NCBI GenBank assembly: GCA_038887515.1
Contig: JAWAKK010000001.1
Coordinates: 710,205 to 774,204, forward strand
From: Candidatus Nezhaarchaeales archaeon
GTDB lineage: Archaea; Thermoproteota; Methanomethylicia; Nezhaarchaeales; WYZ-LMO8
Length of the DNA stretch: 64,000 nucleotides
Reading direction: 5' to 3'
How positions within the stretch are numbered: the first letter of the stretch is position 1; each line of letters opens with the position of its first letter. The notes beneath the pieces were generated by a model. The model searched no databases and had not been told where the DNA came from. It worked only from the letters and a program-made list of their open reading frames with translations. A program made the position numbers and the translations under genes. Positions 1 to 60,176 of the stretch are shown in pieces.

Positions 1-1530
1 ATATACTGTTCCAACATAGTACGTGCAGAAAAAGGCTTTACATACGTTTTCGAAGTAGACGCTGAAGGGTATACTAGCGTTACGGTCCTTTTTTACGACA
101 ATAAAAATGGCAGTTCTTGGCTTCTAGTCCCTAAAGCTCAGAGAGAGGACATAAGCCTTATGGTGAACGAAGGTAGGCTAGTTAATGTAACGTACAGGAG
201 CCTAGTAGAGAAGGGAAAGGAAGATCCATTCTACGTAATCATGGAGTTCGAGTACGAGGCTTCTAGGATAGCCAACATAACCATAAGGTACTTTATGGAA
301 CATGGAGCGCTTATAATAGAGCCTAAGGCCGTATTTATTTCTCCTAGGGTCACTCATGAAGGACCTACGACTACTAGAGTGCTTGTCCACTTACCAAGCT
401 ACGCTACTGTTTCAAGAAGTAGAGTCTCTTCCTTTTCAGGGTTTATTAGAAATGTTGAAGTAATCGAAGGAAAAGGCTGTACCATCGTTGGCGCTATTGT
501 AGGGCCTGACGATAGGATAGTAGTGGAATACACAGTTCCCTTTAAAGGTAACATCACACATTTGACTGCCAACAACTTCACCTTCAGAACGGCTTCTAGA
601 TACCTAAGGTACGCTTACGATGTCCTTGAAACCTTAAACGATTGTTATCCGATTTATGAGAAACTCTTTGAAAACAAGCTATACAACGTAGAGGTAGAGT
701 TCTTTGTTCCATCGATAGAAGAGCTAATGTTAGGAATTGAAGGGTATGTACCCTTTTTAGGCGACAAATTGGGGGCTATTCACTTGAACCTCCTTTACAT
801 CCGAGGAGTTAAGGGTTTTATGGATATAATAGCAATGCATGAACTGGCTCACCACTTTCTATGGAGTATAGGAGTACCACCGTCAAAACTGTGGATTCAT
901 GAAGGGATTGCTGAGTACATAAGCCTAGCTTTAGGGCTACAGAGGGACTACTACGATGCTGTTGAAATTCACGAAAGCTTATTAACGACTGTTTGGAACA
1001 AAATGGACAACTACTTAGGCTTCATTCAGAAGTGGACCCCCTTTTACGTGCCATCGCAAGATCTTAGGTTATGTTATGCTGCCTCTTATTACATTTTCAA
1101 GACACTTTGTGATAGATATGGAGGTTTAGAGTACTTGAAGTCGCTCTTCAAAGCATTTAGGGACATCGATTGGAACAACGATACCCAAGTTATCGAGGCC
1201 TTCGGCATAGCTGCCGGTGATGTAAACGAAGTATTTAAGCTATTTCGCGAATGGGGATTTGAACTTGAAGAATCTTCGCAGCTAGTCCCAAGCCTCTCCA
1301 AAGTTAAGAGAAACGTTTCAGGCATGCCCACCTGGCTTAAACCATATAGGGACATTGCCCAAGCAGTTATTAATGTTGCCGAAGTGTTTCAACAGTACGA
1401 CCTGCCATACCTAAAGATGTTAGCGGTTAAGACTTCGCAAATAATATGCGAGACGAGTTGGGCACTTGCGGCCTTAAGCTTCATAATAGTTATAACGACC
1501 TTGGTCATATTAGTGAGGAGGTCGGCTTAA
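1..1530 (+). CDS. Membrane-anchored protein with HEXXH zinc-metallopeptidase motif (5' end truncated by window edge)
   Basis: Frame 1 is open from nt 1 with no stop, so the ORF starts upstream of the window. HELAHH (HEXXH) motif near nt 835-860. Hydrophobic C-terminal segment ALAALSFIIVITTLVILV suggests a TM anchor. No family recognised with confidence. Confidence 0.4.
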   Translation: MYCSNIVRAEKGFTYVFEVDAEGYTSVTVLFYDNKNGSSWLLVPKAQREDISLMVNEGRLVNVTYRSLVEKGKEDPFYVIMEFEYEASRIANITIRYFMEHGALIIEPKAVFISPRVTHEGPTTTRVLVHLPSYATVSRSRVSSFSGFIRNVEVIEGKGCTIVGAIVGPDDRIVVEYTVPFKGNITHLTANNFTFRTASRYLRYAYDVLETLNDCYPIYEKLFENKLYNVEVEFFVPSIEELMLGIEGYVPFLGDKLGAIHLNLLYIRGVKGFMDIIAMHELAHHFLWSIGVPPSKLWIHEGIAEYISLALGLQRDYYDAVEIHESLLTTVWNKMDNYLGFIQKWTPFYVPSQDLRLCYAASYYIFKTLCDRYGGLEYLKSLFKAFRDIDWNNDTQVIEAFGIAAGDVNEVFKLFREWGFELEESSQLVPSLSKVKRNVSGMPTWLKPYRDIAQAVINVAEVFQQYDLPYLKMLAVKTSQIICETSWALAALSFIIVITTLVILVRRSA

Positions 1531-12114: not shown

Positions 12115-12211
12115 GGGCCCGTGGCGCAGCCCGGATAGCGCGGCGACAACCGTTAAGGTTGCCGTAAGCCTCCTAAGCCGTTGGTCGTGGGTTCAAATCC
12201 CACCGGGCCCG
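12115..12211 (+). tRNA. Intron-containing tRNA-Arg (anticodon CCU or CCG depending on intron position)
   Basis: 7-bp acceptor stem GGGCCCG/CGGGCCC. D-arm GCGC-AGCCCGGATA-GCGC. T-arm GTGGG-TTCAAAT-CCCAC. 97 nt, about 22 nt too long between the D- and T-arms. Removing nt 34-55 of the gene (genomic 12148-12169) gives a canonical loop CUCCUAA (U33, A37, anticodon CCU). A canonical 37/38 intron would give CCG with U at position 37. No CCA encoded. Confidence 0.7.
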
Positions 12212-47784: not shown

Positions 47785-47873
47785 GGGCCCGTCGTCTAGT
47801 TTGGATAGGACGCCAGCCTGCGGTTCACGTAGAAAGCTGGAGGTCCGGGGTTCAAGTCCCCGCGGGCCCGCCA
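47785..47873 (+). tRNA. tRNA-Arg (anticodon GCG) with an ~11-nt intron at the canonical 37/38 position and genomically encoded CCA
   Basis: Acceptor stem GGGCCCG/CGGGCCC. D-arm GTCT/GGAC. Anticodon stem CCAGC/GCTGG perfectly paired. Loop CUGCGG followed by insert TTCACGTAGAA then A38. A 4-bp helix TGCG/CGTA flanked by 3-nt bulges resembles a BHB-like motif. T-arm CGGGG-TTCAAGT-CCCCG. 3' end ...G-CCA is encoded. Confidence 0.75.
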
Positions 47874-48270: not shown

Positions 48271-50223
48271 CTACATTCTTTGAGCTAACTTAAAGTTTAG
48301 CGCCCTAGCACAGCTCTCGATTACGCTCTTGATCGCGTAGACCAGCATCAACCTTGCTTTGCGGGTCTCCTCATCCTTTTCCTTAATTACGTTGACTTTC
48401 TCGTAGTATGCGTTAAACAGTTCGCTTATCTGGTTTAAGTAGTTTGTAAGCAGTTCTGGCTTAAGTTCATCCGCAGCCTCCACGAAGACTTTGGGGTACT
48501 TAGCCATTTGTATTATGAGTTCCCTCTCATAGCCGTGAGTTAGCTTCGTAGTATCGACTTCTGAAGTGGGCGTAAACCCGCTCTTCCTAAGTATTCCCAG
48601 CGCTCTAACGTAGGTGTAGTTTATGAAGGGGAAACTGTTTCTCTCGAAGTTGATAACTTGGTTCCAGTCGAACGTTATCGGCTTGCTTGCCGTAACGCTT
48701 AGAAGAGCGTACTTGACCGCGCCTACCCCTATGATCTCAGCTATTTCTCTCTTCTCCTCTTCACTTAGCTCCCAGCCCCTCTTCTCGACTTCAAGTTTTA
48801 CCCTATTGACGGCTTCGTTTAGAAGATCGTCCAAAGCAATGTACCTACCTCGCCTACTAGACATCTTAGCCCCGGGGAGCCTTACCAACTCGTACGCATA
48901 GTGTATGTACCGCTTCTCTACATCCCTTACCCCGAGAAGTGCGAGCACGATCTTTAACTGCAACTGGGCTAGGCTCTGCTCTGCGCCTATCACATTTATG
49001 ACCTTATCGGCTTTCGCAAGCTTCCAAAGTGCGTAAGCTATATCCCTGGTAGTATAGAGAGTTGTTCCATCGGCCCTCTTTAATGTCAGCTTTGGAATCT
49101 CCTTTTCCTCCAAGTTCCACTTCTCCTTAAGGCCTAGGAGCGACGCTATTTTGTCAACATTCAATATTAGAGCCCCATCAGATTCCTCGAAGGCCCAAGG
49201 TGCTACCTTCCTTATATCGTCGATTACTTTCTCCGTTGCTCCGCTCCATACCGTTATCTCGCTTTCCCAGTCCCATTCGTCGAAGCGTATCCATAGTCTC
49301 TCCAAAGTCTGCTTGAAGCCTTCTATGACCGCGTTGCATAGCTCCCTAACTATCCTTACGGCTTCTTTGGATCCCCCTTCGTAGTCCCTATTTAGCCTAG
49401 ATATCGTTGCCCTCGGGTCTCCATCAATCGTTATCTTATCTAGTAATAGGTCAAAGAGTTCTGGGTACCTGCTCTTAAGGTCGTAGGCTACTCCAACCCA
49501 TTCGTCGATCTCTTTTATTATTTCCTGTCTCTCATCGTCCGTAGAGACGTTTTCGAGCCTCTTCTTTAAGCTAAGTATTTCAACTATGGCGTTAGTTATT
49601 GGGTAAATTGCCCCTATCGAGTGATCCGGCTTTCCACCTAGAACTTTCTCTTTTACCTTCGAGTGACCGTAGGCAGCTATCATTACTTGAAGACCCATGT
49701 CGTTTATGTAGAAATGCGTCTCCACTTTATGACCTCGAGCCCTTAGTAACGATGCTAAGCTATCGCCTATGATGGCGTTCCTGGCCGTACCTATCGTAAG
49801 CGGGTGTACGGGGTTCCCGCTCGTATGCTCTACTATCGTCTTTAAGGGGTTACTTGTCTCGACTAAGCCGTAGTTTGACTGAAGATTTATTATGGTGGAA
49901 AAAAGTTCTCTTGCAAGCTCGTAGTGATTAGCGTAGAAGTTTACGTAGCCTGCTCCAGCTGATTCAGCTTTATCTACGTACCTCCTATCTTGAGCCATTA
50001 TCCTTGATGCGATGTCGTCCGCTAACCTCCTAGGATTTACCCCAAAGGTTCTAGCTACTTCGAAGCATGGGTATGCTAACTCGCCCATCTCTCTATTAGG
50101 GGGAGGCTCAAGGCCCTTAGCTAAACTCTTCTCAATAATGTCCTTTAAGGGCTCGTCCACAGATTCCCTTATCAGCCTTATACATTCCTCTTCAAACAGT
50201 TGGAACGGAATTACGTGAGGCAT
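48271..50223 (-). CDS. argS: Arginyl-tRNA synthetase
   Basis: 650 aa. Class I aaRS with a degenerate HIGH region (HTSGNPVHPLTIG), KMSSRRG (KMSKS-like) and an ArgRS anticodon-binding C-terminus ending ...QRM. Confidence 0.9.
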   Translation of the reverse strand: MPHVIPFQLFEEECIRLIRESVDEPLKDIIEKSLAKGLEPPPNREMGELAYPCFEVARTFGVNPRRLADDIASRIMAQDRRYVDKAESAGAGYVNFYANHYELARELFSTIINLQSNYGLVETSNPLKTIVEHTSGNPVHPLTIGTARNAIIGDSLASLLRARGHKVETHFYINDMGLQVMIAAYGHSKVKEKVLGGKPDHSIGAIYPITNAIVEILSLKKRLENVSTDDERQEIIKEIDEWVGVAYDLKSRYPELFDLLLDKITIDGDPRATISRLNRDYEGGSKEAVRIVRELCNAVIEGFKQTLERLWIRFDEWDWESEITVWSGATEKVIDDIRKVAPWAFEESDGALILNVDKIASLLGLKEKWNLEEKEIPKLTLKRADGTTLYTTRDIAYALWKLAKADKVINVIGAEQSLAQLQLKIVLALLGVRDVEKRYIHYAYELVRLPGAKMSSRRGRYIALDDLLNEAVNRVKLEVEKRGWELSEEEKREIAEIIGVGAVKYALLSVTASKPITFDWNQVINFERNSFPFINYTYVRALGILRKSGFTPTSEVDTTKLTHGYERELIIQMAKYPKVFVEAADELKPELLTNYLNQISELFNAYYEKVNVIKEKDEETRKARLMLVYAIKSVIESCARALNFKLAQRM

Positions 50224-51953: not shown

Positions 51954-52204
51954 AAAACGTCAGATAAAAGGATAGTAATAGCGAATACTTGAAACTTATC
52001 CATAGCATCTAGAGACGCTAAATGCGGTTTAGCAATATGCTAAGAATTAAAGGTTGATAGACAATTCAATACCGATGAGATTTTGGACCACTTACATCCT
52101 AAAAGTGTATTATTTCGCAATTTTATGTCACAATTTATATAATCTGTACTAAAAAATATTTAAATTTCGTAAATTTTCGTGTTAACAACGAGGATGTAAG
52201 AAGA

Positions 52205-53077
52205 ATGATCAAGAAAGTTGTTATTACTGCCGCGGGTCTTGGTACGAGGCTGCTACCAATAACTAAAGAGATACCCAAAGAGATGCTACCAATATGTCTT
52301 GATAATAGTAACGGTCCTACTCTTAAGCCTCTCCTTCAAGCGCTTTTTGAACAACTGTATTCGTTCGGATTTAGAGACTTTTGTTTTGTTGTTGGTAGAG
52401 GGAAGAGGGCTATTGAGGATCATTTTACTCCGGATTGGAATTTCGTCAATAGTTTAAGAAGTAAGGGTAAATTAAACATTGCCGAGGAATTGGAAAATTT
52501 CTATAGGATGATAGAAAGCTCAAGGATACTATTCGTTAATCAACCCGAGCCAAAGGGGTTTGGGCATGCAGTTTTAATGGCTAAACCTTTTGTGGGGAAA
52601 GAGCCCTTCATGGTTTGTGCTGGAGATACTTACATAATTTCAACTAATAACGACTTCTTAAAGAGGTTGGTGTCGGCTTTTTCAGATGATGTTACAGCGG
52701 CAATTCTTCTTCAGAGGGTTGAAGATCCTTGGAATTATGGCGTTGCTCTTGTTAAGCCGAGTAATAGCTTATTATTAGATATAATAGAGGTTGTCGAAAA
52801 ACCCAAAGCTCCTAAGTCAAATATAGCAATAATGCCATTCTACATATTCAAGCCGGAAATAATAGGGGTATTAGAGAATTTGGAGCCAGGCGTTGGCAAT
52901 GAATACCAGCTTACAGATGCCATTCAAAAGATAATTATGATGGGTCGAAGAGTTGTTGGTGTCTTACTTGAAGAAGACGAATTGAGGCTCGATATAGGAA
53001 CGCCAAAGACATACATCGAGGCTTTAAAAGTGTCTTACGAATATCATCGTAGGAGGAATTATAATGTCACATATTAA
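52205..53077 (+). CDS. Sugar-1-phosphate nucleotidyltransferase (GalU/RmlA-like)
   Basis: N-terminal VVITAAGLGTRLLPITKEIPKEMLPI nucleotidyltransferase signature. 290 aa. Confidence 0.8.
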   Translation: MIKKVVITAAGLGTRLLPITKEIPKEMLPICLDNSNGPTLKPLLQALFEQLYSFGFRDFCFVVGRGKRAIEDHFTPDWNFVNSLRSKGKLNIAEELENFYRMIESSRILFVNQPEPKGFGHAVLMAKPFVGKEPFMVCAGDTYIISTNNDFLKRLVSAFSDDVTAAILLQRVEDPWNYGVALVKPSNSLLLDIIEVVEKPKAPKSNIAIMPFYIFKPEIIGVLENLEPGVGNEYQLTDAIQKIIMMGRRVVGVLLEEDELRLDIGTPKTYIEALKVSYEYHRRRNYNVTY

Positions 53078-54068
53078 ATTCGAAGTACGACTACCTTCAA
53101 ATCTTGAGGAGATGGTAAAAGATAAAACATTTCTAATAACCGGGGGGGCTGGTTTTATTGGAAGCTGGCTTACAGAAACTTTAGTTGAACTAGGAGCAAA
53201 AGTAACCGTTTTGGATAATCTCTCATCAGGAAGTATCGAGAACATTAAACATTTGTTTAATTGCGGGAACTTCGACTTTATCGAAGCCGATGTTTCAAAC
53301 TACAAAAACAATAGAATTTATGATTACATAGTTCACGCAGCAAGCATCCCAGCGCCTGATATGTACGTTACGAGACCCGTTGAGACAATGTTACCAAATA
53401 GCATTGGTACGTTAAACATCTTAGAAGTCTCAAGAAAGTATGGAAGTCGAGTCTTATTTCTATCGACTTCTGAAGTTTATGGAGATGCGAGAGTTGTCCC
53501 AACCCCAGAAAACTACTGGGGATATGTAAATCCTATAGGTATAAGGTCTTGTTATGACGAATCCAAGCGCTTTGGCGAAGCATTATGTATGGCATATTTT
53601 AGACAGTATGGTATTGACGTTAGAATTGCCCGAATTTTTAATACGTACGGGCCAAGGCTTGACCCAAATGCTTGTTATGCAAGGGTTATTTCTAAATTTA
53701 TAATCCAAGCCTTAAGAGGTGATCCTATAACAATTTATGGTGATGGAAAACAAACTCGAAGTTTCCTGTATATAACTGATGCGATTGAGGCACTAGTTAA
53801 GTTCCTTTTAATAGATGGGCTAAGTGGAGAAGTTGTTAATATAGGCAGTCCGCACGAAATAACGATATTAGAGTTGGCTAACATTATAAAAAGACTCACC
53901 GGTTCTAATTCTCCAATAGAGTTTCATCCACCAAGACCTGATGATCCAAAAAGAAGGTGCCCCGATATTTCTAAGGCACAGAGAATTTTGAACTGGAACC
54001 CCAAAGTTTCATTACACGATGGACTCGAACTTACCATTGCATGGTTTAAGAAGGTGATAATAATATGA
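53064..54068 (+). CDS. NAD-dependent sugar-nucleotide SDR, UDP-glucuronate decarboxylase (UXS)-like
   Basis: Extended SDR. GGAGFIGS Rossmann motif. YxxxK catalytic region. ARIFNTYGPRL motif characteristic of UXS/ArnA-type decarboxylases. Confidence 0.7.
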   Translation: MSHIKFEVRLPSNLEEMVKDKTFLITGGAGFIGSWLTETLVELGAKVTVLDNLSSGSIENIKHLFNCGNFDFIEADVSNYKNNRIYDYIVHAASIPAPDMYVTRPVETMLPNSIGTLNILEVSRKYGSRVLFLSTSEVYGDARVVPTPENYWGYVNPIGIRSCYDESKRFGEALCMAYFRQYGIDVRIARIFNTYGPRLDPNACYARVISKFIIQALRGDPITIYGDGKQTRSFLYITDAIEALVKFLLIDGLSGEVVNIGSPHEITILELANIIKRLTGSNSPIEFHPPRPDDPKRRCPDISKAQRILNWNPKVSLHDGLELTIAWFKKVIII

Positions 54069-55423
54069 CTGTCATCTCGTACATAGGCATGGGATATGTA
54101 GGACTGGCGAGCGCTGTATGCTTGGCATATAAAGGCTTTAGGGTAATAGGTGTAGACATAGATCCTTTAAAAGTTAAAATTATAAACTCGGGTAAGCCGC
54201 CATACTATGAGCCTAAAGTTGAAGAACTTTTAAAAGATGTGTTAAAAAAAGACCTTTTTTATTGCACCACCGATTACATCAAAGCGGTGCAAGGTTCAAA
54301 TATAACGTTTATAGCTGTTGGCACTCCAAGCAATCCGGATGGAAGCATAAATCTTGATCAAATAAAAAGGGCTGCGAAATACATTGGAGAGGCGCTAAGA
54401 GACAAACATGAATATCACTTAGTAGTTGTCAGAAGCACCGTTGTCCCTGGAACTACGGAGAAAGTGGTTAAACCCATAATTGAGCAAGCTTCAGGAAAGA
54501 GTTGTGGTAGTGAGTTCGGCTTGTGCTTCAACCCAGAATTCCTTAGAGAAGGTTCGGCTGTGGATGATACCTTTAATCCTGATAGGGTAGTTATAGGTGA
54601 ATTTGATGAACGGTCTGGCAATACGCTTGAAAAACTATATAGGGACTTCCACGGAGATGAAGTACCTGTAATCATGAGAACTAATATAGTTAATGCTGAG
54701 CTCATAAAATATGCTAATAATGCATTTTTAGCGATGAAGGTTAGTTTCATCAACATGATAGCAAACCTATGCCAAAAGCTTCCAGGAGCTGACGTTGAGG
54801 TTGTAGCCAAGGGTATAGGTTTAGATAAGAGAATAGGACCTCTCTTTCTTAAAGCCGGGGCTGGATGGGGGGGAAGCTGTTTTCCAAAAGACCTTAAAGC
54901 ATTACTTCATTTCGGCTTAAAGAGTGGCGTAGAACTACCGCTCGTTGAATCAACGTTGAAGGTCAATGAAAATCAACCCTATAAACTCATTGAATTAGCC
55001 AAAAGTCTTATTGGAACCTTGCGTGGAAGGAGGGTTTCCATACTTGGGCTAGCTTTTAAAGCTGGAACGGACGATATGAGAGAGGCCGTTTCAATAAAGG
55101 TTGTTGAGAGACTTTTAGACGAGGGTGCCAACTTAATAGTATACGATCCTAAAGCCATGGAAAACGCTAAGAAAATCTTCGGTAGTCGTATTGAATATGC
55201 TAATAACATTGAAGAGTGCTTAAAGGGATCTGAGTGCGCAATAATAGTTACAGAGTGGGATGAATTTCGTAAGTTAACACCCGAGCGTTACATAGAGCTA
55301 ATGAAAATTCCAGCAATCGTAGATGGGAGAAGAATTTACGATCCACGCGAGTTCTCACGTAAACTTAGATTTGCAGCTATAGGGTATGGACAAGAAACTT
55401 CGGCAACAATTCATTATTCATAA
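54065..55423 (+). CDS. ugd: UDP-glucose 6-dehydrogenase
   Basis: N-terminal GMGYVGL Rossmann motif. Catalytic GGSCFPKD motif. 452 aa. Overlaps the upstream gene by 4 nt. Confidence 0.85.
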   Translation: MTVISYIGMGYVGLASAVCLAYKGFRVIGVDIDPLKVKIINSGKPPYYEPKVEELLKDVLKKDLFYCTTDYIKAVQGSNITFIAVGTPSNPDGSINLDQIKRAAKYIGEALRDKHEYHLVVVRSTVVPGTTEKVVKPIIEQASGKSCGSEFGLCFNPEFLREGSAVDDTFNPDRVVIGEFDERSGNTLEKLYRDFHGDEVPVIMRTNIVNAELIKYANNAFLAMKVSFINMIANLCQKLPGADVEVVAKGIGLDKRIGPLFLKAGAGWGGSCFPKDLKALLHFGLKSGVELPLVESTLKVNENQPYKLIELAKSLIGTLRGRRVSILGLAFKAGTDDMREAVSIKVVERLLDEGANLIVYDPKAMENAKKIFGSRIEYANNIEECLKGSECAIIVTEWDEFRKLTPERYIELMKIPAIVDGRRIYDPREFSRKLRFAAIGYGQETSATIHYS

Positions 55424-55843
55424 CCAAATATGATAATTTCATTTTTACTACGAGAAGGAATTTTTAAAATACATTTTTAAGTTTGTAAAATCTTCTAAAA
55501 AGTTCTGTCAAAAACAAGATGAAGTAAAAGCAGGATATACTCCAGTATTTAATAAATATTGGAGTTTTAGAATTAGACGAATGTTGAGGCGTTTACCTAA
55601 ATCTCCTTTAAGTTCGCAAGGACTTACCGTTTTATAACTTATAATTATTTATTACCTTATAGCTATGCTACTGATGTACCATTACCTGATAGTCAAGTTC
55701 CAGTGGTTGAGATCACTTTGGATGAGCCCTCATGATATTAAATTATAGCTTTAATTGTTGAATTAAGAATGCTGGCTAATCATCAACGTACTCGCCTATT
55801 TTACGAATACTAATACTTAAGCTTACTTTGATTAAAAGCAAGG

Positions 55844-55877
55844 TAAGATATAAGTAGTGTTAAGATATAAGTAGTGT
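55844..55877. repeat. Perfect 17-nt tandem duplication (TAAGATATAAGTAGTGT x2)
   Basis: Read directly. Two adjacent identical 17-mers in the AT-rich intergenic region upstream of the disrupted GT2 gene. Confidence 0.85.
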
Positions 55878-55894
55878 AAGGATGCAACTGTTAA

Positions 55895-57039
55895 GGTAAG
55901 TCAAGGAAGGGGGATTTTGATATAAAAACTGCCATTCTAGTGCCTACATATTGCGGTGCAGATGTATTACCATACTTACTTGAGAGCTTAATAAAAAGTG
56001 GATCTATGCCAGACATGATATTATTTGTTGTAAAGGCTTGTCCTATATCTGAGCTTGAAGGAATTAAAGTTATAGAGGATTTCGTTGAAAAAACATAAAA
56101 GGTCAAACAAAAGCATCTATCATTAAATATAAAGGTCCTTACGGATTAGTTAGACAAATATTGATTGGATTAAGGACTTTATACAAATTAAATTATGACA
56201 TCGTTATATTCTTAGATGATGATTCGTACATTGTTTCTAATAAGTTTGTTGAATTACATGAAAAATGGTACGAAGTAAATGAAGTTGGTGGAGTAGCAGG
56301 TTGTATAATAGACGTATGGAAGCGTGGCGAGGACTTTGTACAAATAGCTGGAAATGTGTCTATACCTCCCAAAAGGCTTTACTTGTGGAGAGAGCCAGCT
56401 ATTAAGATTCTCAATAGGTTTATACCTCAAACATATTTTACAAAGGGAGGCTATGTTGCAGTATGTGGAAACGATACTTATCATCTTAAGAGGGGTGCAA
56501 GGCATGTATTCTCTTTACTGGGCGGCGGATCAAACATGTCAATAAGGTTAGCAGCACTTAGTTGCTTTCTGAAAGGGGATAATATCGCAAAACTTTTACC
56601 TAATACTCCAATCGCTATGAGGTACGAACAGATACTAGCTTATCACATAGTTAAAAGAGGTTACGTAATAGTTAAAGATTACAACATAAAGACTTACCAC
56701 ATATTCAGAGAAGGAGGCGAGACAAGAGCTCCTAGGAATTATCGAAGGAGTACAATTACTGCAACGGATGATTTCCTGTACTTTTACATGAAGCATTCGT
56801 ATCCATGTGATTTTTCATTTATACATAAAATTTTGGCTGTTATACAGAGGCTATATCGATCCATAGTTGTAGAACAAAAGAAAAGTAGTGATATCGAACT
56901 ACTTCTTGCCCGTCTTTTTGGTCACTTATTTGGAAATAGTGTCGGAATATGGTGGAGCCTATCGTCTAACAAAGAGTACGTATATCAATTATTTAGGAGG
57001 TATGAAAGTTTTATGAAGGGTATACTTAAGGAATCGTAA
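55895..57039 (+). pseudogene. Family 2 glycosyltransferase disrupted by a -1 frameshift in an A6 run and lacking an ATG start
   Basis: N-terminal fragment ...DIKTAILVPTYCGADVLPYLLESL...FVEKT*. Reading resumes in the +1 frame as KNIKGQTKASIIKYKGPYGLVRQILIGL...IVIFLDDDSY (DxD motif). One extra A in the A6 run at 56088-56093 would give a continuous ORF. The expected start codon position reads ATA. Confidence 0.65.
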
Positions 57040-57447
57040 TTATAATGATAGGCTTTACAACCATAAAGTAACTTATGGACCACTTTATTAATCGCATGTT
57101 TTCTCTGAAGTACTTCACCAAGAACGTTGAGATTTAAGGTCTAAGCATGCGGTTCGCCCATAAAGATCGGAAGAAGCCGAGAATAAATGCCAGTCCAAGC
57201 CTTTACCATCTTGGCTCATCTACTCTCCGGTAAAGGTCTTGTAACTAAAATCGAAAGGAACAAGTTTAGAAGTTTAGCCTATACTAATAAGCCAAAGATA
57301 TTTACGCTCTTCTTCTGAAGATTACCTCCTTCGTCGGCTTGACGTAAACAATTTCCAGACACCATACGTGATAAGCCTTATTACTTGTTTCCGATAACTT
57401 TTTTGGACGAATAGTCATTGAAGTTAAGCTCGGAGGTCGTTATTTAA

Positions 57448-58689
57448 TTGAAGAAAGCCGTTGTTTCTCACCACTTTTGGGATAGACCTGGTGGTGGGCA
57501 ACTCGTATGTAGTGCTGTGGCTTACGCTTTAAAGGTCCTCGGTTTTAACCCTGTTTTAACGTCTATTTCGTTGTTTGAGAGGGATAAGTATATTGATTGG
57601 TTCGGAATAAACTTGCAGGACTATGAAGTTATACCGTTTTTGAAATTTAGGTTGAGGGCATTTGGGATATACATGAGGCTCCTCGTTTGGGTGCCAATGA
57701 AAAAAGCCATAGAAAAGCTTAACCCGGATATAGTCTTTACTGACGAATGCACCTATAGGCCTGTAGAGAAGCTTGTCGATCGCGAGAAAACCCTATTTGT
57801 TGAGTACATACATTTTCCAATTGAAGTCTCGATTCTAGAGGAGTATAAAGGTAGTGGCTTGTACTATGGTGAGGATCCTTACCTATTAGAGCGCTATAGT
57901 AGGTTCCCCATGAACATATATTGGTGGGGGTACGCGAAGCTTCTCCCCCTCTTTCTACGCAGGAACCCGTTTGAAGTGGCTTCATTGGTGCTGACGAATT
58001 CTAAGTGGACAGCCGAAATCGCAGGAAAGATCTACGGAGAGAGACCTCAGGTGCTGAATCCACCTATAGCGCCAAACGTCGAAATAGCCCAAGAACCTAA
58101 GGTGTTCGAAGAGAGGGAGAACGCCATAGTTATGCTTGGACGCTTCTCCGAAGAGAAGAGGTACCACTGGGTTGTGGAGGAGGTTATGCCGAGACTTCGC
58201 AGAGAGCTAGGAGGTGTAAAGCTGTACGTCTTTGGTGGTGCTAGGACCAAGACCAGTATGATGTATCTAAGCGAAGTAGGAGAAAGGGCTACAAGGAGAG
58301 GCTTAAAAGTGTCTAATAACATTAAAGACTTGGCTGACATATATCTGGTACCTGACGCTCCCAGAAAAGTCATAAACAATGTAATGGACAAGGCGAAGGT
58401 CTTTTTACATGCAACCATAAACGAGCACTGGGGCATAGCGCCAGCCGAAGCCATGGCTAGAGGGTTACCAATAGTAGTTCACAAATCGGGTGGAACTTGG
58501 AGCGATCTTGCTGTCGAAGGTGAGTACGGGCTGGGGTATAATAATATCGAAGAGGTCATAGAATTGCTGTCTAAACTTCTAAATGACGAAAACGTGTGGA
58601 GACATTACTCGAAAAGGTCTATCCTTAAAGCAGGAGATTTAACAATAATTAAGTTCATAGACAGGCTCAAAGGGTTGATTAAAGCTTGA
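57448..58689 (+). CDS. Family 4 (GT-B, retaining) glycosyltransferase
   Basis: C-terminal EX7E-type motif region (NEHWGIAPAEAMARGLPIVVHKSGG). 413 aa. TTG start. Confidence 0.75.
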   Translation: MKKAVVSHHFWDRPGGGQLVCSAVAYALKVLGFNPVLTSISLFERDKYIDWFGINLQDYEVIPFLKFRLRAFGIYMRLLVWVPMKKAIEKLNPDIVFTDECTYRPVEKLVDREKTLFVEYIHFPIEVSILEEYKGSGLYYGEDPYLLERYSRFPMNIYWWGYAKLLPLFLRRNPFEVASLVLTNSKWTAEIAGKIYGERPQVLNPPIAPNVEIAQEPKVFEERENAIVMLGRFSEEKRYHWVVEEVMPRLRRELGGVKLYVFGGARTKTSMMYLSEVGERATRRGLKVSNNIKDLADIYLVPDAPRKVINNVMDKAKVFLHATINEHWGIAPAEAMARGLPIVVHKSGGTWSDLAVEGEYGLGYNNIEEVIELLSKLLNDENVWRHYSKRSILKAGDLTIIKFIDRLKGLIKA

Positions 58690-58805
58690 GATCATTGTTT
58701 ATTAATTTATTAAGAGGGATTTTGAAAGATGGCTTTTTATCAACTACATTCTTAGTTTTTGATGGGATTCTCTAGAGGTTAATAGAATTGGTAATGTTCT
58801 AGAGA

Positions 58806-59090
58806 TTATACTAGTCCTTTCACTTCCTCTTCGCCCGCTTTAAGCTGAGAGTCCTGCTCATTATCGAGTTCCTTGAGTATTGCTAGTAACTCGCCTACGT
58901 GGGTTTTCTCCTCCCTAGCTATGTCCTCTAAGATCCTTCTAACCTTCTCATTTACGCATGCCTTGGCGAACTGTAGGTAGAGGTTAATGGCATCTAGCTC
59001 AGCTATTATCGACATCCTGATGGCTTCTATCATTTCATCGAATGTAAATCTCCTATCTTTAAGCAAGTCTAGAGGGTTCCTCGCCATCAA
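58806..59090 (-). CDS. Small ferritin-like/rubrerythrin-family diiron-motif protein
   Basis: 94-aa helical protein with E...EEKTHVGEL (ExxH) motif pairs typical of ferritin-like four-helix bundles. Confidence 0.45.
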   Translation of the reverse strand: MMARNPLDLLKDRRFTFDEMIEAIRMSIIAELDAINLYLQFAKACVNEKVRRILEDIAREEKTHVGELLAILKELDNEQDSQLKAGEEEVKGLV

Positions 59091-59239
59091 AGTTTTCCAC
59101 CCTTTAAATCGTAATAAAGGAAGTACTATTATTTTATGCTCGAACAGTGGAAAAAGTAGTTATGAGGGACCACTTACATGAATTAAAAGTGCAACCATTG
59201 TAGGCGAATGAATAATATCGCTATTTACAGAAAGGAAAG

Positions 59240-59339
59240 TGGCCCGGCCGGGATTTGAACCCGGGTCTCCGGCTCGAAAGGCCGGGATACTTGACCTGGC
59301 TGTACGGCCCACGCAGGCTGGCCTCTATACGACCGGGCC
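59240..59339 (-). tRNA. tRNA-Glu (anticodon UUC) with a ~25-nt intron in the D-loop (non-canonical position)
   Basis: Reverse complement gives acceptor GGCCCGG/CCGGGCC. T-arm CCGGG-TTCAAAT-CCCGG. Anticodon arm CCGGC-CUUUCGA-GCCGG with U33, anticodon UUC and G37, then a 4-nt variable loop. The region between positions 8 and 26 is 47 nt instead of about 19. Removing about 25 nt (AGGCCAGCCTGCGTGGGCCGTACAG) leaves D-stem GTAT/GTAT and D-loop AGCCAGGTCAA. Discriminator A. No CCA. Confidence 0.7.
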
Positions 59340-59432
59340 TTGCTTTTGTGATTTTTAGAACACACTCTTAAATGTTAGGTTTTTGAATTCTTACGTTAGC
59401 TTTATCTCATTATAAGGATTATTCTATTCTCG

Positions 59433-60176
59433 GTGTTAAACTTGGAAGTAAGGATAGTAGGCAGAGGATTTAAAGGGAGTTGGCTTGTAGTTGGGCTCCC
59501 GGACGCTGGCCTTGTAGGCGCCATATCCGCATCGCACATGGTTAGAATGTTGGGTTTAGAAACTATAGCTCACGTGGAGAGCGAGCTCCTCCCGCCCATG
59601 ATAGTCATCCATCAATCTAAGGTGTACGACCCCGTTAGGGTTTTTGGAAGAGAAGGATTGATGGTTTTGAGCAGCGAAGTACCGTTACCCCCCTCACTTA
59701 TACATCCTTTAGGAAGAAGTGTAGTAGAGTGGGCCGTCAGGGAGGGGGTCAAGGGGATTATCTCCATAACCGGGATAGCCGTTCCCAACAGGCTTGACAT
59801 AGAGACGCCGGAGGTCTATGGCGTAGCTGGAGCTATGGAGTTATATGATTTGTTCGCAAAGGCTAACATTAAAAGCTTCGAGGAGGGATTTGTTGTTGGG
59901 CCTGCAGCCGTAATGATTAGGGAGAGCATGAGGAAGGGGTTATCCTCCTTCATGTTGTTGGTTCAATGCTTCCTCGAATATCCTGACCCGGGGGCCGCAG
60001 CCCAAGCATTGCTAGCCTTAAACCGAATTCTTAACCTTAACATTGACGTAAAGCCGCTACTTGACGAGGCAGAGATGATAAGGGTAAGGACGCGTGAACT
60101 TATGAGACGTACGGCGGAAGCTATGAAGCAAATGAAGAAAGCCCACGAGTTTGAAGTCCCGTTGATGTATACGTAG
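59433..60176 (+). CDS. PAC2-family protein (proteasome assembly chaperone-like, COG1938)
   Basis: N-terminal LVVGLPDAGLVGAISASHMV pattern typical of archaeal PAC2/PbaA-like proteins. 247 aa. TTG start. Confidence 0.55.
   Translation: MLNLEVRIVGRGFKGSWLVVGLPDAGLVGAISASHMVRMLGLETIAHVESELLPPMIVIHQSKVYDPVRVFGREGLMVLSSEVPLPPSLIHPLGRSVVEWAVREGVKGIISITGIAVPNRLDIETPEVYGVAGAMELYDLFAKANIKSFEEGFVVGPAAVMIRESMRKGLSSFMLLVQCFLEYPDPGAAAQALLALNRILNLNIDVKPLLDEAEMIRVRTRELMRRTAEAMKQMKKAHEFEVPLMYT

Follow-up and report, generated by a model that had tools for sequence, protein, structure and literature searches.

The archaeal RNA-splicing endonuclease EndA acts on a 4-bp helix between two 3-nt bulges, the bulge-helix-bulge (BHB), and in canonical pre-tRNA the first two anticodon bases lie within that helix (PMC4090602). 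Short introns with BHB, HBh' or hBH motifs also lie away from position 37/38 in Thermoproteales and in other Crenarchaeota/Thaumarchaeota, and standard gene finders mis-bound or miss the genes that carry them (PMC4090602, PMC8450103); the archaeal mode of tRNAscan-SE 2.0 includes a search for them by default (PMC8450103). In Methanopyrus kandleri, pre-tRNA-Glu(UUC) has a D-loop intron with an HBh' motif at 20b/21; the (alpha-beta)2 enzyme of Aeropyrum pernix removes it in vitro (Kaneta et al. 2018, PMC5829648). [quoted passage not shown] 2011, PMC3241643). The non-canonical positions listed in one review (20/21, 22/23, 25/26, 29/30, 30/31, 45/46, 53/54, 56/57, 59/60, 3/4, 'etc.'; PMC4090602) do not include 15/16, and our literature search found no paper joining Nezhaarchaeota with tRNA introns.

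The window analysed here is a stretch of 64,000 nt, and the minus strand from 59339 to 59240 very probably holds a functional tRNA-Glu(UUC) gene with one non-canonical 25-nt D-loop intron at 15/16, an HBh' substrate of EndA. The sequences show the gene structure, a splicing motif in the proper register and the conservation, throughout a clade, of the gene, its intron site and its promoter box. The D-loop is a rare position for what is otherwise a well-known kind of protein-spliced tRNA intron.

The precursor gene is 100 nt long, and its strand is absent from the first-pass annotation of this DNA. The reverse complement of 59240-59339, with the intron in brackets, reads GGCCCGG UC GUAU AG [ AGGCCAGCCUGCGUGGGCCGUACAG ] CCAGGUCAA GUAU C CCGGC CUUUCGA GCCGG AGAC CCGGG UUCAAAU CCCGG CCGGGCC A; the features are collected in Table 1. 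All seven acceptor pairs form between GGCCCGG (59339-59333) and CCGGGCC (59247-59241), with 2 nt separating the 5' acceptor strand from the D-stem 5' strand that follows it; CCA is not encoded. Such a tRNA decodes GAA, and GAG too unless the genome has a tRNA-Glu(CUC) elsewhere. The first-pass annotation had named the isoacceptor as tRNA-Glu(UUC) and had placed the whole excess of about 25 nt between the D-stem halves, with the anticodon arm, variable loop, T-arm and acceptor contiguous. Both readings hold. ARAGORN calls Glu with anticodon ttc and no tool assigns another isotype; there is no interruption in the anticodon arm, the 4-nt variable loop, the T-arm or the 3' acceptor strand; and, since the D-stem halves, each of them GUAU, stand 36 nt apart instead of the 11 nt of a normal D-loop, the excess is exactly 25 nt.

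Excising precursor nucleotides 16-40 leaves a 75-nt cloverleaf with arms of 4, 5 and 5 bp and a 7-bp acceptor stem, and this spliced form has the conserved core of U8, A14, G15, G18G19, A21 and C48. Its D-loop is AGCCAGGUCAA, of 11 nt with G15 opposite C48, and is given by the same junctions as the splicing motif. Intron-less tRNA-Glu(UUC) genes met in the genome scan described below have uninterrupted D-arms that closely resemble the one so restored (L055, GTAT AGCCAGGCCCA GTAT; L046, GTAT AGCCCGGTCAA GTAT). There is no canonical 37/38 intron, the anticodon arm CCGGC CUUUCGA GCCGG being unbroken, and the colinear exons, 25 nt apart and with one promoter box, are not those of a split or permuted tRNA gene.

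Table 1. Features of the interrupted tRNA-Glu(UUC) gene, in positions of the window; a slash between bases marks a predicted cut.
Feature	Position	Strand	Basis
Putative BRE/TATA promoter, conserved box CTAACATTTAAGAG, 26-39 nt upstream of 5' exon	59365..59378	-	conserved in syntenic relatives
Pre-tRNA-Glu(UUC) gene, 100 nt, acceptor G1 (59339) to discriminator A (59240)	59240..59339	-	7/7 acceptor pairing, anticodon UUC
5' exon, 15 nt, GGCCCGG UC GUAU AG, tRNA positions 1-15	59325..59339	-	identical in every class-A relative
Central helix H, 5' strand: D-stem 5' strand GUAU, positions 10-13	59327..59330	-	pairs with 59305-59302: G-C, U-A, A-U, U-G
5' splice-site bulge, A14 G15 / A(intron), predicted cut 59325/59324	59324..59326	-	BHB rule from PMC4090602; register scan
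Intron, 25 nt, AGGCCAGCCUGCGUGGGCCGUACAG, between tRNA positions 15 and 16	59300..59324	-	sole junction pair giving 4 bp in both H and h'; orthologous introns
Helix h', 5' strand GGCC	59320..59323	-	
Helix h', 3' strand GGCC	59306..59309	-	C-G to U-A compensatory changes in relatives
Central helix H, 3' strand: intronic GUAC, mimic of D-stem 3' strand	59302..59305	-	3 pairs invariant in 8/8
3' splice site, A G / C16, predicted cut 59300/59299	59299..59301	-	relatives AG/C, AA/C, AA/U or AC/U, always 2 nt after GUAN
3' exon, 60 nt, tRNA positions 16-73	59240..59299	-	
Anticodon UUC	59276..59278	-	ARAGORN and sequence
T-rich trailer CTTTCCTTTCTG, probable transcription stop	59228..59239	-	

The register of the motif fixes the junctions. 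Because the first two anticodon bases of a canonical pre-tRNA sit in the 4-bp helix (PMC4090602), each cut falls after the second bulge nucleotide, and all junction pairs in the precursor were scanned for this EndA register. Only a cut after nucleotide 15 together with an intron length of 25 gives 4 bp in the central helix H plus 4 bp in h'. H and h' occur together in this register in 0.036% (3.6e-4) of 200,000 intron shuffles, and the HBh' arrangement in the exact tRNA-junction register is beyond chance. The GGCC palindromes (59323-59320 and 59309-59306), which had been proposed as parts of a relaxed BHB-like motif, do form one: they make up h', closed by a 10-nt loop, and the resulting HBh' stands at the junctions where excision restores a canonical D-loop. 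Reading the window's sequence for an outer helix h beside the 3' site, we found none; C9/C42, U8/A43 and G7/G44 form no helix, and the motif is thus a relaxed HBh' and not a strict BHB (hBHBh'). In class-A sequences with the 15/16 junction recovered by the scan (L009, L010, L049), the outer helix is 0 or 1 bp long. A pseudoknot between intronic CCUG and CAGG of the D-loop was considered as a stand-in for h and rejected: the D-loop has CCCGG or UCCGG in relatives, and the intron still has CCUG.

Folding the precursor had been suggested as a check for a BHB. The junction-register scan returns HBh' at 15/16, and unconstrained minimum-free-energy (MFE) folding does not. Applied to precursor and mature tRNA alike, plain MFE folding was uninformative: it missed both the motif and the cloverleaf and gave instead long GGCC/CCGG mispairings, at -47.1 kcal/mol versus -41.2 kcal/mol for the HBh' model; failure to give a cloverleaf is usual for G+C-rich tRNAs. 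Among defined conformers of the precursor, HBh' is favoured over the form in which the D-stem is made (-36.9 kcal/mol), and pairing intronic GUAC with the D-stem 3' strand gives a competing conformer of almost the same energy as HBh', -40.7 kcal/mol. ARAGORN run on 224 computationally spliced variants did not tell the junctions apart, as nearly every deletion still yielded a Glu call, and the program gave no score.

Relatives of the gene came from two scans. A genome collection was searched with a pattern demanding extra bases in the D-arm of tRNA-Glu(UUC), and of that tRNA only, which gave 49 loci; in 44 of these a 7/7 acceptor stem encloses the insert. The junction results used here are restricted to the D-arm; an unconstrained scan of the 44 loci sometimes removed the anticodon, that of the window included. 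The window's tRNA body and 15/16 insertion site are common to five genome contigs, labelled Nezhaarchaeota or Nezhaarchaeales (L008, L009, L054), Methanomethylicota (L010) or, in a third-party MAG, 'Nitrososphaerota' (L049). A metagenome scan found the interrupted gene on 22 further contigs (L056-L077), and from the 5 genome and 22 metagenome contigs there are 8 distinct precursor sequences that share the intron site.

Among these relatives the exons are ~99% identical, with 15/15 positions the same in the 5' exon and the changes mostly at D-loop positions 16-17. Their introns, 21-29 nt long, start directly after GUAUAG and end with GUAN plus 2 nt before Y16 in 8/8 variants. When the 8 sequences are aligned with MAFFT, 93% of cells are paired in register versus 26-47% with slid partners. 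The outer pair of H, G10-N, is G-C in 4/8 and mismatched in 4/8, and the other three pairs are invariant; across the relatives 89% of the h' cells are paired, with two h' pairs altered on both strands, from C-G to U-A. One sequence (L008) requires a 4-nt bulge. With n=8, none of five covariation measures is convincingly above control (in 61-166 of 500 shuffles the value is at least as high), and the covariation may be counted as supportive, not decisive. The gene order tRNA-Glu / PAC2 / HSP20 / DUF402 / UPF0147 / p27 / DFP is kept on the 5' side of the tRNA as far as the contigs reach, and the flanking proteins of syntenic relatives are 56-92% identical. Conserved gene order at such identities indicates orthologous loci of a fairly deep clade, with the intron inherited in place. 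One window protein (59433-60176) has its only other exact copy on record on a single Logan contig, from run SRR21619495; the host is thus an uncultured relative of the Nezhaarchaeota MAGs. The Thermoproteales-type lineage implied in the first-pass annotation did not stand: the syntenic relatives are MAGs labelled Nezhaarchaeota, Nezhaarchaeales and Methanomethylicota, and D-arm introns in tRNA-Glu(UUC) occur in many phyla.

Two metagenome contigs deserve separate mention. On L066 (Ga0190367_1018959), the tRNA-Glu at ~220-288 (minus strand) has the 15/16 intron and a second insert of ~29 nt in the variable region (~45/46), in the context GCCGGAG[ TTGGAGCCCATATTTGGGCTCCATCGGTA ]ACCCGGG, which makes it a two-intron version of the same gene. 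L076 (Ga0326760_1005712), a G+C-rich contig, lacks synteny with the window; its tRNA-Glu(UUC) differs in the D-loop, variable loop and T-loop, yet L010 has the identical intron. In the region about 60 nt upstream of this tRNA-Glu, a further tRNA gene has its end ~22 nt from it.

Conservation extends to the upstream box. Its 11-nt core ACATTTAAGAG is unchanged, and its distance nearly so, in every syntenic relative whose contig extends to it; the exception is L069, with one substitution (ACGTTTAAGAG). The 3 bases preceding the core vary in a few relatives, and the surrounding leader DNA diverges. General knowledge of archaeal promoters suggests that the box is a BRE/TATA promoter, and it is positioned for a transcript start just before 59339 and not near 59310. 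Abutting the 3' side of the gene is an island of 38% G+C (~52000-58700) in a window of 46% G+C. It encodes an NTP transferase, an epimerase/dehydratase and a UDP-glucose dehydrogenase, which are sugar-nucleotide enzymes, and a GT4 glycosyltransferase; a small rubrerythrin/EncFtn-like ORF (58806-59090) follows these genes. Synteny with the relatives is present 5' of the tRNA-Glu gene and lost on the island side. A search for att-like repeats of the tRNA 3' end bounding the low-G+C island found none.

An insertion of 25 nt could instead have inactivated the gene, leaving a tRNA-Glu pseudogene that is no longer spliced or used. The lack of an outer helix at the 3' site would suit this reading, as would a second tRNA-Glu(UUC) copy, which is possible elsewhere in the genome. 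However, the promoter box is preserved, and relatives whose flanking proteins are down to 56-80% identity still share essentially invariant exons, the insertion site, H and h'; the insert also fits an EndA register that shuffled introns meet at a frequency of 3.6e-4. This combination of invariant exons with a kept site, motif, promoter and register argues against a decaying pseudogene, and we consider inactivation very unlikely.

We give even less credence to a mature tRNA that retains the insert as an enlarged D-loop with an extra GGCC hairpin. The fold is feasible, with the D-stem formed and the GGCC hairpin within the loop at the -36.9 kcal/mol given above, and the core of the hairpin loop, CCUGCGUGG, is unexpectedly conserved. 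Yet a D-loop of 36 nt would part A14 and G15 from G18G19 and disrupt the tRNA core, the insert ranges from 21 to 29 nt across relatives, and its 3' end is always GUAN plus 2 nt in the exact BHB register, which would be purposeless in a retained loop. We know of no tRNA described with a hairpin-bearing D-loop enlarged in this way.

The intron also accounts for what the common gene finders report. ARAGORN gives tRNA-Glu(ttc) at 59239-59310, and the Rfam model RF00005 matches 59240-59309 with 40.4 bits (gathering score 29); in both, the gene is ~70 nt and its 5' end falls inside the intron. The Rfam alignment deletes 5 consensus positions and flags 3 acceptor pairs as non-standard, so that the ~70-nt reading has 4/7 acceptor pairs and no positions 8-9. 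These boundaries arise because the 3' end of the intron, GGCC-GUAC-AG, imitates the acceptor and D-stem 5' strands in the alignment. A covariance model that placed the intron elsewhere had been named as grounds for dropping the D-loop intron; RF00005, which has no intron states for the D-loop, truncates the acceptor stem and hence offers no such refutation. The finders mis-bound the tRNA-Glu gene rather than overlook it, and the earlier expectation that they often miss such genes fails here and is borne out at 12115-12211 in the same window, which is mis-typed or missed. The agreement of two programs speaks for an intron-less tRNA of ~70 nt (59240-59309/10) preceded by plain upstream DNA (59311-59339), a reading we dismiss as barely credible: beyond the defects just listed, it leaves unused the upstream 15 nt that provide a perfect acceptor strand, U8 and the D-stem strand and are 100% conserved while the adjoining leader diverges, it puts the promoter box 55-68 nt from a start at 59310, and its cloverleaf energy is worse (-25.0 versus -31.7 kcal/mol for the spliced 75-mer).

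For the spliced D-loop intron we infer cleavage, ligation, folding order and enzyme type as follows. In the precursor, the D-stem 5' strand GUAU would pair with intronic GUAC and not with its mature partner, which would give the 4-bp H. A14, G15 and the first intron base would form the 3-nt bulge, and the GGCC tetramers would form h' with its 10-nt loop, the whole making a relaxed substrate for EndA. EndA would cut after G15 and, symmetrically, 2 nt after GUAC (AG/C), and an RtcB-type ligase would then join the exons. With H built from a strand of the mature D-stem, the tRNA core could not fold before splicing, and the D-stem GUAU/GUAU, the U8-A14 and G15-C48 pairs and the elbow contacts of G18G19 with the T-loop would form only afterwards. 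The host of a relaxed-motif intron is expected to encode a broad-specificity EndA, of the (alpha-beta)2 type with a Crenarchaea-specific loop or of the epsilon2 type, and TACK affiliation suggests one here (PMC5829648). The enzyme is presumably the broad-specificity (alpha-beta)2 type, as in TACK archaea; no EndA gene or domain was found in the 20 ORFs scanned out of about 65 in the window, so the type rests on lineage.

The intron may have a role beyond being removed, although we think this unlikely. The hairpin core CCUGCGUGG is invariant in 8/8 distinct intron variants (L008-L010, L049, L054, L056-L077) at loci whose flanking proteins are 56-92% identical, and the splicing motif makes no demand on the sequence of that loop, nor should EndA. 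The predicted 5' cut lies directly 3' of G15, which is the archaeosine position (PMC4770233). A single site kept clade-wide, the invariant CCUGCGUGG, the sequestering of the D-stem 5' strand in H and a cut next to G15 would fit an intron that gates the folding order of the D-arm and the modification of G15, or that recruits a factor; alternatively, the D-loop of tRNA-Glu(UUC) might be a selected hot spot, for example one at which an intron disrupts the target of a mobile element.

The other two tRNAs in the window also bear EndA-type introns. The 97-nt gene at 12115-12211 (plus strand) is a 'tRNA-???' with a 4-base anticodon to ARAGORN and goes unmatched by Rfam even at E<=1. Manual reading gives tRNA-Arg(CCU), with the anticodon loop CUCCUAA at 12170-12176; its anticodon stem is interrupted at 29/30 by a 22-nt intron (12146-12167). 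Its motif is a near-canonical hBHBh', with H formed by GCGG (12140-43) and CCGU (12162-65), bulges CG/A and AA/G, and h' formed by CAACC and GGUUG. The gene at 47785-47873 (plus strand) is called Ala(TGC) by ARAGORN, a reading that needs C33 and a 4-bp anticodon stem; the third acceptor pair is G3-C70, so that G3:U70, the identity pair of tRNA-Ala, is absent. Setting U33 in its place gives the anticodon GCG (47820-47822) and hence tRNA-Arg(GCG), with A20, a G discriminator and an encoded CCA. Its 11-nt mini-intron (47824-47834) lies at 37/38; CUGC and GUAG form H, and a 7-nt hairpin loop holds the 5' site (BHL type). An arginyl-tRNA synthetase gene (48271-50223, minus strand) is ~400 nt away from this tRNA-Arg(GCG). 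An 11-nt identity, GCCAGCCTGCG, links the tRNA-Glu intron (59312-59322, minus strand) with the anticodon arm of tRNA-Arg(GCG) (47812-47822, plus strand); relatives with shorter introns share only 7 nt of it, and the identity is therefore probably due to chance.

The tRNA-Glu(UUC) gene is an essential one, and the value of the finding lies mainly in annotation, with current understanding unchanged: two common finders give the gene a wrong 5' end, and one neighbouring tRNA is missed or mis-typed altogether. Position 15/16 and a Nezhaarchaeota-type lineage join the catalogue of non-canonical tRNA introns, and the gene is a clean example of a splicing motif whose central helix borrows a strand of the mature D-stem. 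In the genome scan, tRNA-Glu(UUC) inserts (L007-L055) lie at 15/16, ~17/18, 20/21, 20b/21 and ~27/28, in groups that include Sulfolobales, Desulfurococcales, Aigarchaeota, Bathyarchaeia, Woesearchaeota, Nezhaarchaeota and others; this recurrence was seen in a search for Glu(UUC) only and says nothing of enrichment over other tRNAs. D-arm inserts at several positions of this one tRNA, in many phyla, may interest work on the co-evolution of tRNA introns and EndA. Aigarchaeota have theirs in the anticodon stem, and several Woesearchaeota-labelled MAGs at 15/16 or 20/21, with unrelated sequences.

How the window's intron compares with those of other archaea depends on whether position, design or descent is considered. 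Four tRNA-Glu(UUC) genes, from Woesearchaeota-labelled MAGs (L022, L023, L025) and from the Methanosarcinales-labelled L041, have the same junction after G15. L041 also has the same design: its H pairs the D-stem 5' strand GUGU with intronic GCAC, and a long h' follows. The introns of all four, 32 nt long and A+U-rich, are nevertheless unrelated to the window's, as are the tRNA body and the lineage, and these 15/16 inserts look like an independent gain. The reviewed introns away from 37/38 belong to Thermoproteales and other Crenarchaeota/Thaumarchaeota; the host here is Nezhaarchaeota-like, not Thermoproteales. The intron resembles that of A. pernix tRNA-Thr2(UGU) as an EndA-type D-loop intron of a TACK archaeon; the A. 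pernix intron, however, is a strict BHB in a different tRNA, and the window's 3' site has no outer helix. With M. kandleri it shares the isoacceptor, the D-loop location and a relaxed HBh' rather than a strict BHB. The M. kandleri gene differs in having an additional canonical 37/38 intron and in lineage, and there is no similarity of intron sequence. The tRNA-Glu(UUC) inserts of Sulfolobales and Desulfurococcales in the genome scan come after 20b, which is the M. kandleri site, whereas the junction here is at 15/16 and the central helix of the motif is drawn from the 5' strand of the D-stem.
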